From an uncultured Rickettsiales bacterium (GTDB lineage: Bacteria > Pseudomonadota > Alphaproteobacteria > Rickettsiales > UBA8987), in contig CAZPQM010000010.1 of assembly GCA_964588995.1 (NCBI GenBank), positions 910-64,909 on the forward strand: a stretch of DNA of 64,000 nt. Reading direction: 5' to 3'. The notes under the pieces were generated by a model. It saw nothing but the letters and a program-made list of their open reading frames with translations, was not told the DNA's origin and made no database searches. Positions within the stretch are counted from its first letter, which is position 1; each line of letters starts with the position of its first letter. The position numbers were made by a program, and so were the translations under genes. Below are positions 1,579-36,179 of the stretch, piece after piece.

Positions 1579-2421
1579 ATGATTGAAAATACCGTGATTG
1601 CGATTCCGGCACGGATGGCCTCGGTGCGCTTGCCCGGCAAACCGCTGGTGGAAATTGCCGGAAAGCCCATGATTGCACATGTTGTCACCCGAGCACTGGA
1701 AGCGGAGTTGGGCGAGGTGATTGTCGCGTGTGATGATGCGCGGATCGCAGAAGTCGCCGAGCAGGCAGGCGCCATTCCGGTTATGACGGGCGATCATCAC
1801 CAATCGGGCAGTGACCGGATTGTAGAGGCCTTGGAGAAACAGTACGGTCTTTTGACCCCTCACCCTAACCCTCTCCCGGCGGGAAAGGGGATAAAGAAGG
1901 TAATCTCTCCCTCTGGGAGAGGTCGAGACAGCGCAGCTGTCGAGGGTGAGGGAATAAACGTCCCGGATATCATCGTCAACCTGCAAGGTGATCTGCCGAC
2001 GATTTCACCGCAAGCTATCCGCGCCGCCGTAGCGCCGTTTGTGCACACTGAGGCCGACATCGTCACGCTTGCCGCGCTGATTCACACCCCGGAGGAGCGC
2101 GAGAACCCGAATGTGGTCAAGCCGGTCGTCGCGTGGCATGCGGACGAAACCGAAGGCCGCGCGCTTTACTTCACCCGCGCAACGGCGCCTTACGGTGAAG
2201 GCACGCTCTACCATCATATCGGACTCTATGCCTATCGTCGCGATGCGCTCATGCGCTTTACCAAGCTGCCGCCAAGTAAGCTCGAGCAACGCGAGCGGCT
2301 GGAACAACTCCGTGCATTAGAAAACGGGATGAAGATTCATGTAGTGCGCGTGGATGAGGTGCCCCTCGGCGTCGATACCCCGGCTGATGTGGAAAAGGCC
2401 GAGGGGATGCTGCAAATATAG
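1579..2421 (+). CDS. kdsB: 3-deoxy-manno-octulosonate cytidylyltransferase (CMP-KDO synthetase)
   Basis: The 280-aa ORF matches the KdsB pattern throughout: IPARMASVRLPGKPL, GKPMI, DHHQSGSDR, NLQGDLP, HIGLYAYR, LEQLRALENG, GVDTPADV. It carries a ~32-aa insertion (see repeat 1857-1952). Confidence 0.9.
   Translation: MIENTVIAIPARMASVRLPGKPLVEIAGKPMIAHVVTRALEAELGEVIVACDDARIAEVAEQAGAIPVMTGDHHQSGSDRIVEALEKQYGLLTPHPNPLPAGKGIKKVISPSGRGRDSAAVEGEGINVPDIIVNLQGDLPTISPQAIRAAVAPFVHTEADIVTLAALIHTPEERENPNVVKPVVAWHADETEGRALYFTRATAPYGEGTLYHHIGLYAYRRDALMRFTKLPPSKLEQRERLEQLRALENGMKIHVVRVDEVPLGVDTPADVEKAEGMLQI
1857..1952. repeat. 96-bp palindromic element inserted in-frame in kdsB
   Basis: Termini ccctcaccct (1857-1866) and agggtgaggg (1943-1952) are perfect inverted repeats, and inner ctctccc / gggagag motifs also pair. 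The element encodes ..PHPNPLPAGKGIKKVISPSGRGRDSAAVEGEG.. between the conserved KdsB blocks DHHQSGSDRIVEALEK and DIIVNLQGD. Confidence 0.65.
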
Positions 2422-35605: not shown

Positions 35606-36179
35606 AGAAGATGCTTCCGGCAATCTCTCCGCTCGTAATCAGGGTGGGAGAGAGGGGCTACGCTCTGGAGAGGATGGGGGTGAGATGGCCCCCCTCCCAA
35701 CCTCCCCGCGCACGCAGGGGGAGGAGTTAAAGGTAAACAGCACGCCGGGAGAAAAGCTAAAGAATATCTCTCTCCCGCCTACGGAAAATCCACTCATCTC
35801 CCCCCCCCTTGCGGAAAATCCCCCTATCTCCCCCCCGCCTGCGGGGGGGATTAAGGGGGGGCCAAAAGCCCCTGCCAGTCATCCTACCCATCTCCTGCGC
35901 TTTGTCGTCCGCCGGGTTATCGGGGCGAATGTCCTGCTGCTGACCGTCATCGGAGTGTGCCTGCTTGAATACCGCCATGCGCTGCTTTTGGCAGGGCTTT
36001 GCGCATTCGGATTCCTACATAATTTCAACCTGCTGAGATGGTATATCACGGAAAAGGCAGATTACCTCACTCCGGAGATACGTTCGCAGCTCGCTCCCAT
36101 CATGTTCATCATACCCGGCTTGCTCACCACGCCATACCTGATCGCTGCGTTGGCAGGGCTCGTGCTGTTTACGGTGTGA
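35592..36179 (+). CDS. possible small membrane protein (only the C-terminal half looks genuine)
   Basis: In the 195-aa ORF the first ~95 aa are a translation of the repeat cluster. The last ~95 aa have three hydrophobic helices (VIGANVLLLTVIGVCLL, LLLAGLCAFGFL, IMFIIPGLLTTPYLIAALAGLVLF). The true start is unknown. Confidence 0.3.
   Translation: MKRRKEDASGNLSARNQGGREGLRSGEDGGEMAPLPTSPRTQGEELKVNSTPGEKLKNISLPPTENPLISPPLAENPPISPPPAGGIKGGPKAPASHPTHLLRFVVRRVIGANVLLLTVIGVCLLEYRHALLLAGLCAFGFLHNFNLLRWYITEKADYLTPEIRSQLAPIMFIIPGLLTTPYLIAALAGLVLFTV
35640..35870. repeat. cluster of C-tract/G-tract hairpin repeats downstream of lysS
   Basis: ctctggagagg..gggggtgag resembles the kdsB element's right arm. 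There is a hairpin cctcccc-gcgcacgca-ggggagg, direct repeats cggaaaatccNcNNatctccccccc at 30-nt spacing, and a hairpin tccccccc-gcctgc-ggggggga. Confidence 0.5.

Follow-up and report, generated by a model that had tools for sequence, protein, structure and literature searches.

The window analysed here is a stretch of 64,000 nucleotides, positions 910-64909 of contig C10 in a 2.06-Mb genome of 53 contigs with 50.5% G+C. It carries a gene for CMP-Kdo synthetase, kdsB, the ATG of which is preceded by a purine-rich run reminiscent of a Shine-Dalgarno sequence. The product is recognized by the Pfam family CTP_transf_3 with 151 bits, in a match broken into two stretches, and the KdsB entries of the PDB match it at an E-value of about 1e-46; its closest homologue among 5.8 billion proteins is 56% identical. 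In one relative (locus L002, G005:C247), kdsB and the downstream gene of a pfkB-family kinase form a single open frame of 585 aa, which represents either a fusion or a lost stop codon. The features of the window gene, including the segment that was probably inserted into it, are the following:

1579-2421, plus strand: kdsB (CMP-Kdo synthetase) open reading frame, 280 aa including the insert
1851-1955, plus strand: putative insertion of about 105 nt, equal to 35 codons (approximately residues 92-126, LTPHPNPLPAGKGIKKVISPSGRGRDSAAVEGEGI), with ends uncertain by about 6 nt
1851-1856, plus strand: tttgac preceding the core
1857-1889, minus strand: left module, a canonical BoxC/PIT/TM type A triplex motif by the TMECO consensus regular expression
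1857-1865, plus strand: left third strand, CCCTCACCC
1866-1868, plus strand: left TAA loop
1869-1877, plus strand: left C-arm, CCCTCTCCC
1878-1880, plus strand: left GGC loop
1881-1889, plus strand: left G-arm, GGGAAAGGG
1890-1904, plus strand: 15-nt spacer between the modules, gataaagaaggtaat, which encodes IKKVI and is conserved in full-length sister copies
1905-1952, plus strand: right module, a TM variant whose hairpin is seen in the fold
1905-1911, plus strand: right C-arm, CTCTCCC
1912-1914, plus strand: right TCT loop
1915-1921, plus strand: right G-arm, GGGAGAG
1922-1943, plus strand: right second loop, grown to a 22-nt hairpin, gtcgagacagcgcagctgtcga
1944-1952, plus strand: right third strand, GGGTGAGGG

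The original prediction held that a 96-bp palindrome splits two conserved KdsB blocks at a position where the E. coli enzyme has only a few residues, and both parts of this claim are borne out by the two-stretch Pfam match and by alignments to the PDB entries. The blocks ...SDRIVEALEK (...SGSDRIVEALEK) and DIIVNLQGD are separated in the window KdsB by 42 residues, QYGLLTPHPNPLPAGKGIKKVISPSGRGRDSAAVEGEGINVP, whereas 6 residues lie between them in E. coli KdsB (1VH1, 3K8D). The presence of the same segment in orthologues from distant taxa had been named as an observation that would speak against an insertion. The 59 homologues aligned have a loop of 6-7 residues of the type xDPxGxH and none of them carries the insert, and in all 30 genomes searched from within the family or order a gap of only about 20 nt separates the two parts of the KdsB match. 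The net excess of the window protein over its orthologues amounts to ~35 residues, and, judged against the 30 relatives, the 59 homologues and the PDB KdsB entries, the insert is private to this genome. When the 42-residue peptide was searched against the 5.8 billion proteins it returned the query alone, a search in which short peptides have little power at such a database size.

Since the best homologue is so distant, there is no close relative with an empty site by which the ends of the element could be fixed. The hexamer tttgac found before the core is, however, also present in a copy from another species (L013, '...tttgac ccctca'), and matches to E. coli copies likewise begin at 1851. On these grounds the inserted unit probably spans about 1851-1955, a length of 105 nt or 35 codons that equals the excess observed in the protein. 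No clear target-site duplication was seen at the kdsB junctions, nor was any parent insertion sequence found whose ends match. The pair ACGGTC (1844-1849) and ACGTC (1958-1962) was considered as a duplication and rejected, being a weak candidate with which the total would be out of frame.

Both perfect 10-nt termini of the palindrome were found as described, and CCCTCACCCT occurs in the window solely at 1857-1866 on the plus strand and at 1943-1952 on the minus strand (as AGGGTGAGGG), against 0.07 matches expected from shuffled sequences. The terminal inverted repeats are perfect over 10 nt and reach 21 nt at 76% complementarity. The fold computed for a 121-nt stretch has an energy of -60.2 kcal/mol (z = -5.35), a value that none of 200 shuffles attained. 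The original prediction did not recognise to which class of repeat this palindrome belongs. The G/C-rich triplex motif known as TMECO, or BoxC/PIT, has the consensus CCCTCNCCC-N3-6-GGGNGAGGG-N3-GGGNGAGGG and has been described for E. coli and for over 260 further bacterial genomes (Holder et al. 2015, NAR 43:10126, PMC4666352), after earlier studies of BoxC/PIT from the Hofnung and Maher groups to which that paper refers. On the minus strand, the left module displays the order C-arm, loop, G-arm, TTA and third strand, and reads CCCTTTCCC-GCC-GGGAGAGGG-TTA-GGGTGAGGG with one mismatch, located in the first block. In the right module the C-arm, the G-arm and the third strand are all present, but a 22-nt hairpin takes the place of the second loop, canonically 3 nt long, and the pair is thus not composed of two canonical modules. 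The kdsB insert, as read from its sequence, is an inverted pair of BoxC/PIT/TM modules, the left one carrying the defining motif and the right one being a variant, and the 10-nt termini are the two third strands of this pair, facing outward. By blastn, 41 nt of the left half (window 1851-1891) align to E. coli copies at 90% identity, and the E. coli copies that match it are found in 5401 of 5426 complete genomes, at a median of 13 places per genome; the one E. coli locus that was read is intergenic and consists of an inverted pair with third strands outward. A scan of positions 1400-2600 against Rfam gave a chance-level match alone (whalefall-1, 16 bits, below its gathering score of 37), and no Rfam family exists for the element.

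The suggestion that the palindrome belongs to a dispersed family is confirmed by a search of the whole genome with an nhmmer profile built from five full copies (cut-off E < 1e-3), which gave about 33 matches, 8-9 of them near full length and with 76-91% identity. Likewise, the consensus regular expression finds 20 canonical modules in the genome, including the one in kdsB (1857-1890), and none in three shuffles. The search for further CCCTCACCCT..AGGGTGAGGG elements was therefore productive as regards other contigs, where the true relatives lie, nhmmer giving no second copy on the kdsB contig. The related motif that had been placed at 35660-35690 of the window, on the other hand, is not a detectable member of the family: it has no significant nhmmer or BLAST match and appears by eye to be a degenerate or different G-run module. 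Positions 35640-35720 contain a G-run module, gcccccctcccaacctcccc-gcgcacgca-gggggagg, that corresponds to the sequence flanking the intergenic kdsB-type copies on the right, where it is part of mosaics of ~200 nt.

Intergenic copies of near full length, 85-91% identical over about 100 nt to the kdsB copy, are found on up to four other contigs, including C1, C4 (two copies) and C5, while shorter or more diverged ones occur on C3, C15 and C9. The intergenic copies form part of larger mosaic repeats of ~200 nt. One full-length intergenic copy (C5:72193-72305) lies about 300 nt 3' of kdsA. The kdsB copy differs from every other copy, its best match being 91% identical, and the 85-91% identity to intergenic copies suggests a recent mobile origin for the element in kdsB. 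Among relatives, single TM modules have a patchy distribution (14 of 40 genomes) and the full composite is found in none of the 40. A 21-nt signature specific to the composite was detected in one other species among 185,579, an alphaproteobacterial metagenome-assembled genome (OZ252216.1), in a related but diverged copy.

Long open reading frames span only three of the ~33 copies, the one in kdsB and two more that the original prediction did not mention:

C3:122171-122273, within the open reading frame C3:121460-122614: sister copy in lpxK, insert LPRPSPLPEGEGIKKISSPSEREQDGVAGEGKEMT
C15:46603-46700, within the open reading frame C15:45384-48905: sister copy in mfd, insert LYPHPNLLPEGEGSRSTSPSGRGQNTASILGEG

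The LpxK proteins of 19 relatives align to the window genome's LpxK as two blocks that skip the insert segment, and the copy in Mfd falls in a variable loop, the counterpart of which in six relatives is shorter by about 20 residues. Between their termini the genic copies measure 96, 96 and 93 nt, have no stop codon in the host frame and share the same orientation and frame, whereas the lengths of five intergenic copies are 98, 100, 100, 98 and 89 nt, with only one of the five free of stops in that frame. The chance that three lengths are all multiples of three is 1/27. The common frame is not significant in itself (p about 0.1-0.25), because the element can be read without a stop in 2-3 of its 6 frames. 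When translated, the copies in the three genes give much the same peptide, PHPNPLP.G.G...SPSGRG...GEG. An enrichment of the element in LPS genes (kdsB, lpxK and near kdsA) was considered and set aside, as the events are too few and the clustering is probably a coincidence.

In order to map the insert onto the protein, as the original prediction had advised, an AlphaFold2 model of KdsB was built from an alignment of 60 sequences (mean pLDDT 89, pTM 0.86). A Foldseek search with this model gave E. coli KdsB (3k8d/3k8e) as the top matches, and also 1h7e and 2y6p, with target-normalised TM-scores of 0.84-0.90. Residues 90-130 are modelled as coil with a pLDDT of about 50, between the helix of residues 77-89 and the strand of residues 131-134, and the insert joins the N-terminal end of the beta strand whose C-terminal end bears the catalytic QGD (136-138). 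In alpha/beta nucleotidyltransferase folds the N-terminal end of a strand lies on the face opposite the active site. Based on this topology, and not on a measured distance, the insert loop is predicted to project from the face away from the active site, and if the low pLDDT is taken as a proxy for disorder, the loop would be disordered; it is likewise predicted to be harmless.

Taken together, these observations make it very likely, in our judgment, that the kdsB element is a selfish palindromic repeat whose in-frame insertion has been tolerated and which would be translated as a floppy loop. We hypothesize that a gene-less BoxC/PIT/TM pair of ~105 nt inserted into kdsB at the short loop that joins helix 77-89 to the beta strand of the catalytic QGD, and that kdsB would have stayed open because the length of the pair is a multiple of three and the host frame runs through it without a stop. 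The element would then be translated as a loop of ~35 residues rich in Pro, Gly and Ser, hanging at the strand end opposite the catalytic motif and so allowing the enzyme to work. Purifying selection would remove nearly all genic insertions, and in-frame, stop-free copies located in tolerant loops, such as those in kdsB, lpxK and mfd, would be the ones to survive. Both the route by which the element reached kdsB and the translation of the insert are what we infer from these data, and a point to be weighed against a translated loop is that a hairpin of -60 kcal/mol within the mRNA could impede translation.

An alternative reading is that the element has been exapted, the loop or the DNA/RNA hairpin now being functional, as a regulatory or interaction loop or in mRNA stability or attenuation, and kept by positive selection. 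Such a role might be suggested by the presence of two of the three genic copies in genes of the lipid A-Kdo pathway (kdsB and lpxK), by the further copy just 3' of kdsA and by the similar peptide encoded by the three genic copies, but the likeness of the peptides follows from shared nucleotide ancestry, the loop is present in no orthologue and is unstructured in the model, and PIT/TM elements of E. coli showed neither promoter nor terminator activity (PMC4666352). We therefore regard exaptation as quite unlikely.

It is also conceivable that the insert is present in the DNA and missing from the protein, owing to translational bypassing or to removal at the RNA level, and a very stable hairpin is indeed a feature of bypass elements. 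Bypassing has precedents in gene 60 of phage T4 and in the byp elements of Magnusiomyces mitochondria. Under this mechanism the frame need not be kept, yet the three genic copies are stop-free and multiples of 3 nt whereas the intergenic copies are not; moreover, no pair of take-off and landing codons was seen, and we know of no RNA ligation system for such a case, which counts against removal from the RNA. Absence of the segment from the protein is, accordingly, considered very unlikely.

Were kdsB inactivated or decaying in a lineage that is losing its LPS, the insert would be a simple disruption, a reading with which a reduced genome (about 2 Mb), rich in repeats and with an insert in lpxK as well, might seem to agree. 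The kdsB frame is nevertheless full length and unbroken, and its product keeps each of the 60 positions at which the 60 aligned sequences agree without exception, R12, K21, Q136-G137-D138 and D266 among them. The other genes of the pathway point in the same direction, since kdsA is intact (401 bits; C5:72599-73369, minus strand) and so is waaA, which encodes the Kdo transferase (204 bits) and lies directly upstream of the insert-bearing lpxK. The original prediction had also allowed for a pseudogene backed by a second intact kdsB. The window gene is the sole copy in a genome estimated to be 100% complete, further matches to a kdsB query being to the insert part only. On the sequence evidence of a single copy, of invariant residues that are kept and of the presence of kdsA and waaA, kdsB is intact and needed, which makes decay highly improbable and supports the earlier proposal that the insert is tolerated in an essential enzyme of LPS synthesis. 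An assembly error by which a repeat copy was joined into the kdsB contig, or a minority allele in the sampled population, is scarcely credible as an explanation even in a 53-contig draft of metagenome type with many near-identical repeats, because the flanks are two halves of one gene, in frame and on a 67-kb contig, and the kdsB copy is unlike all others (best 91%), so that a collapse or chimera is unlikely, and the same in-frame pattern recurs in the two other genic copies.

If the tolerated in-frame insertion is accepted, the locus can be seen as a natural experiment in which the KdsB loop linking helix 3 to the QGD strand takes an insertion of 35 residues. A separate question is how such an element moves. 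To our knowledge, no mobility mechanism has been known for BoxC/PIT/TM repeats since the 1990s. A candidate is offered by the distribution of genes for DUF559 nucleases (PF04480), of which two domains are found in the present genome, both stop-free within essential genes and bracketed by inverted G/C-run hairpins of the triplex type:

C18:20682-20993, within the open reading frame C18:17703-21827: DUF559 in CarB, a 1375-aa frame, within the second ATP-grasp half
C12:40763-41077, within the open reading frame C12:39800-44248: DUF559 in IleS, a 1483-aa frame

In relatives (loci L021-L048, genomes G001-G038), most DUF559 domains likewise lie in open frames of 700-1440 aa, and few are free-standing, as ORFs of 115-137 aa. 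The hosts in the order include CarB, DnaE and IleS, the last often with DUF559 at one recurrent site, following ...TTTPWTLPSNLALAV; other hosts look like ValS and RecJ by sequence motifs. Within these host genes DUF559 looks like an in-frame, intein-less nuclease cassette, comparable to a homing endonuclease without its intein. CarB (C18) and IleS (C12, twice) contain in addition a further in-frame, repeat-derived peptide, SPLAGES...GGG...PPPES.I.TPPQGGSY, which points to another palindromic family colonising coding regions.

Among 40 relatives, DUF559 is present in 18, TM modules in 14 and both in 13. In other words, DUF559 is found in 13 of the 14 TM-positive genomes and in 5 of the 26 TM-negative ones (Fisher p = 8e-6; 1.5e-4 when each genus contributes a single genome). 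The two are also close to each other, a consensus TM module being located at most 300 nt from the gene in 16 of 26 DUF559 loci, mostly within about 60 nt, and on both sides in 8 of those 16; the chance expectation of a module within 60 nt, calculated from module density, is about 0.03. The third strand of the nearest module, taken on either side, faces the DUF559 gene in 18-19 of 21 cases. Furthermore, the upstream flank of the carB DUF559 segment (same genome) resembles the kdsB right module, extended hairpin included, with an alignment score of 11 against -5.5 +/- 4.1 for shuffles, a score reached by 1 of 2000 shuffles, and in one relative the downstream flank of DUF559, gaccctcaccctaaccctctccc..., is identical to the kdsB left module at 34 of 45 aligned positions. 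When translated, the cassette flanks read SP.GRG..GEG - DUF559 - HPHPNPLP..GEG; the kdsB peptide has these two halves in the opposite order. Tentatively, and at somewhat less than even probability, we propose that BoxC/PIT/TM repeats are the cognate repeats of DUF559 (Vsr-like) nucleases and that the kdsB element may be a gene-less derivative of such a cassette. No published link between DUF559 and TM repeats was found in the literature searched. If true, this association would provide, for a repeat of unknown origin that has been an orphan for 30 years, a candidate enzyme that can be tested.

With the BoxC/PIT/TM elements of E. coli the kdsB element shares the three-block motif, the TTA loop of type A, a dispersed multi-copy distribution and the arrangement as an inverted pair with third strands outward. 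It departs from them in three respects: TMECO is reported to be always intergenic in E. coli MG1655 (Holder et al., PMC4666352) whereas here it lies within three coding genes, the second loop of the right module is a 22-nt hairpin and not 3 nt, and the composite of ~100 nt is lineage-specific. Small, gene-less elements with terminal inverted repeats that lie within ORFs are also known among the MITEs that form in-frame fusions (intragenic ERIC and others; PMC10969869). However, neither a target-site duplication nor a parent IS was found for the kdsB element, and consequently it is not filed here as a classical MITE. The Ssn GIY-YIG nucleases with their NTS/SRM repeats (Chenal et al. 2025, PMC11893778) offer a further parallel, in that TM modules bracket a small DUF559 nuclease gene in relatives, always in a fixed inverted geometry, and gene-less module pairs are dispersed in the genome, as in the SRM/ssnA layout (PMC11893778). 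Unlike Ssn, DUF559 is a Vsr-like PD-(D/E)XK nuclease, neither GIY-YIG nor HUH, and its link with TM modules consists of co-occurrence and geometry. REP/RAYT is another system that joins a nuclease to a cognate hairpin repeat.

The closest likeness in behaviour is to the Rickettsia palindromic elements (RPE; Ogata et al. 2000 and 2002), as far as these are summarised in PMC10969869. Both are scattered palindromes of ~100-150 nt, some of which lie in frame in unrelated housekeeping genes, and in both the extra peptide is predicted to be compatible with the fold of the host protein (PMC10969869), the translation of the kdsB element being itself a prediction. They differ in that the present element has the sequence of a BoxC/TM repeat and resides in a non-Rickettsia host, and 3 of its ~33 copies are genic as opposed to nearly half in some RPE families, again according to that summary. 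The likeness claimed here is one of behaviour alone and not of membership. The class of repeat and its selfish in-frame behaviour are both known, and the kdsB element is not a new kind of system; its significance would rather lie in that BoxC/triplex repeats, described as intergenic-only in E. coli, can colonise the coding regions of essential envelope and repair genes in the manner of RPE.
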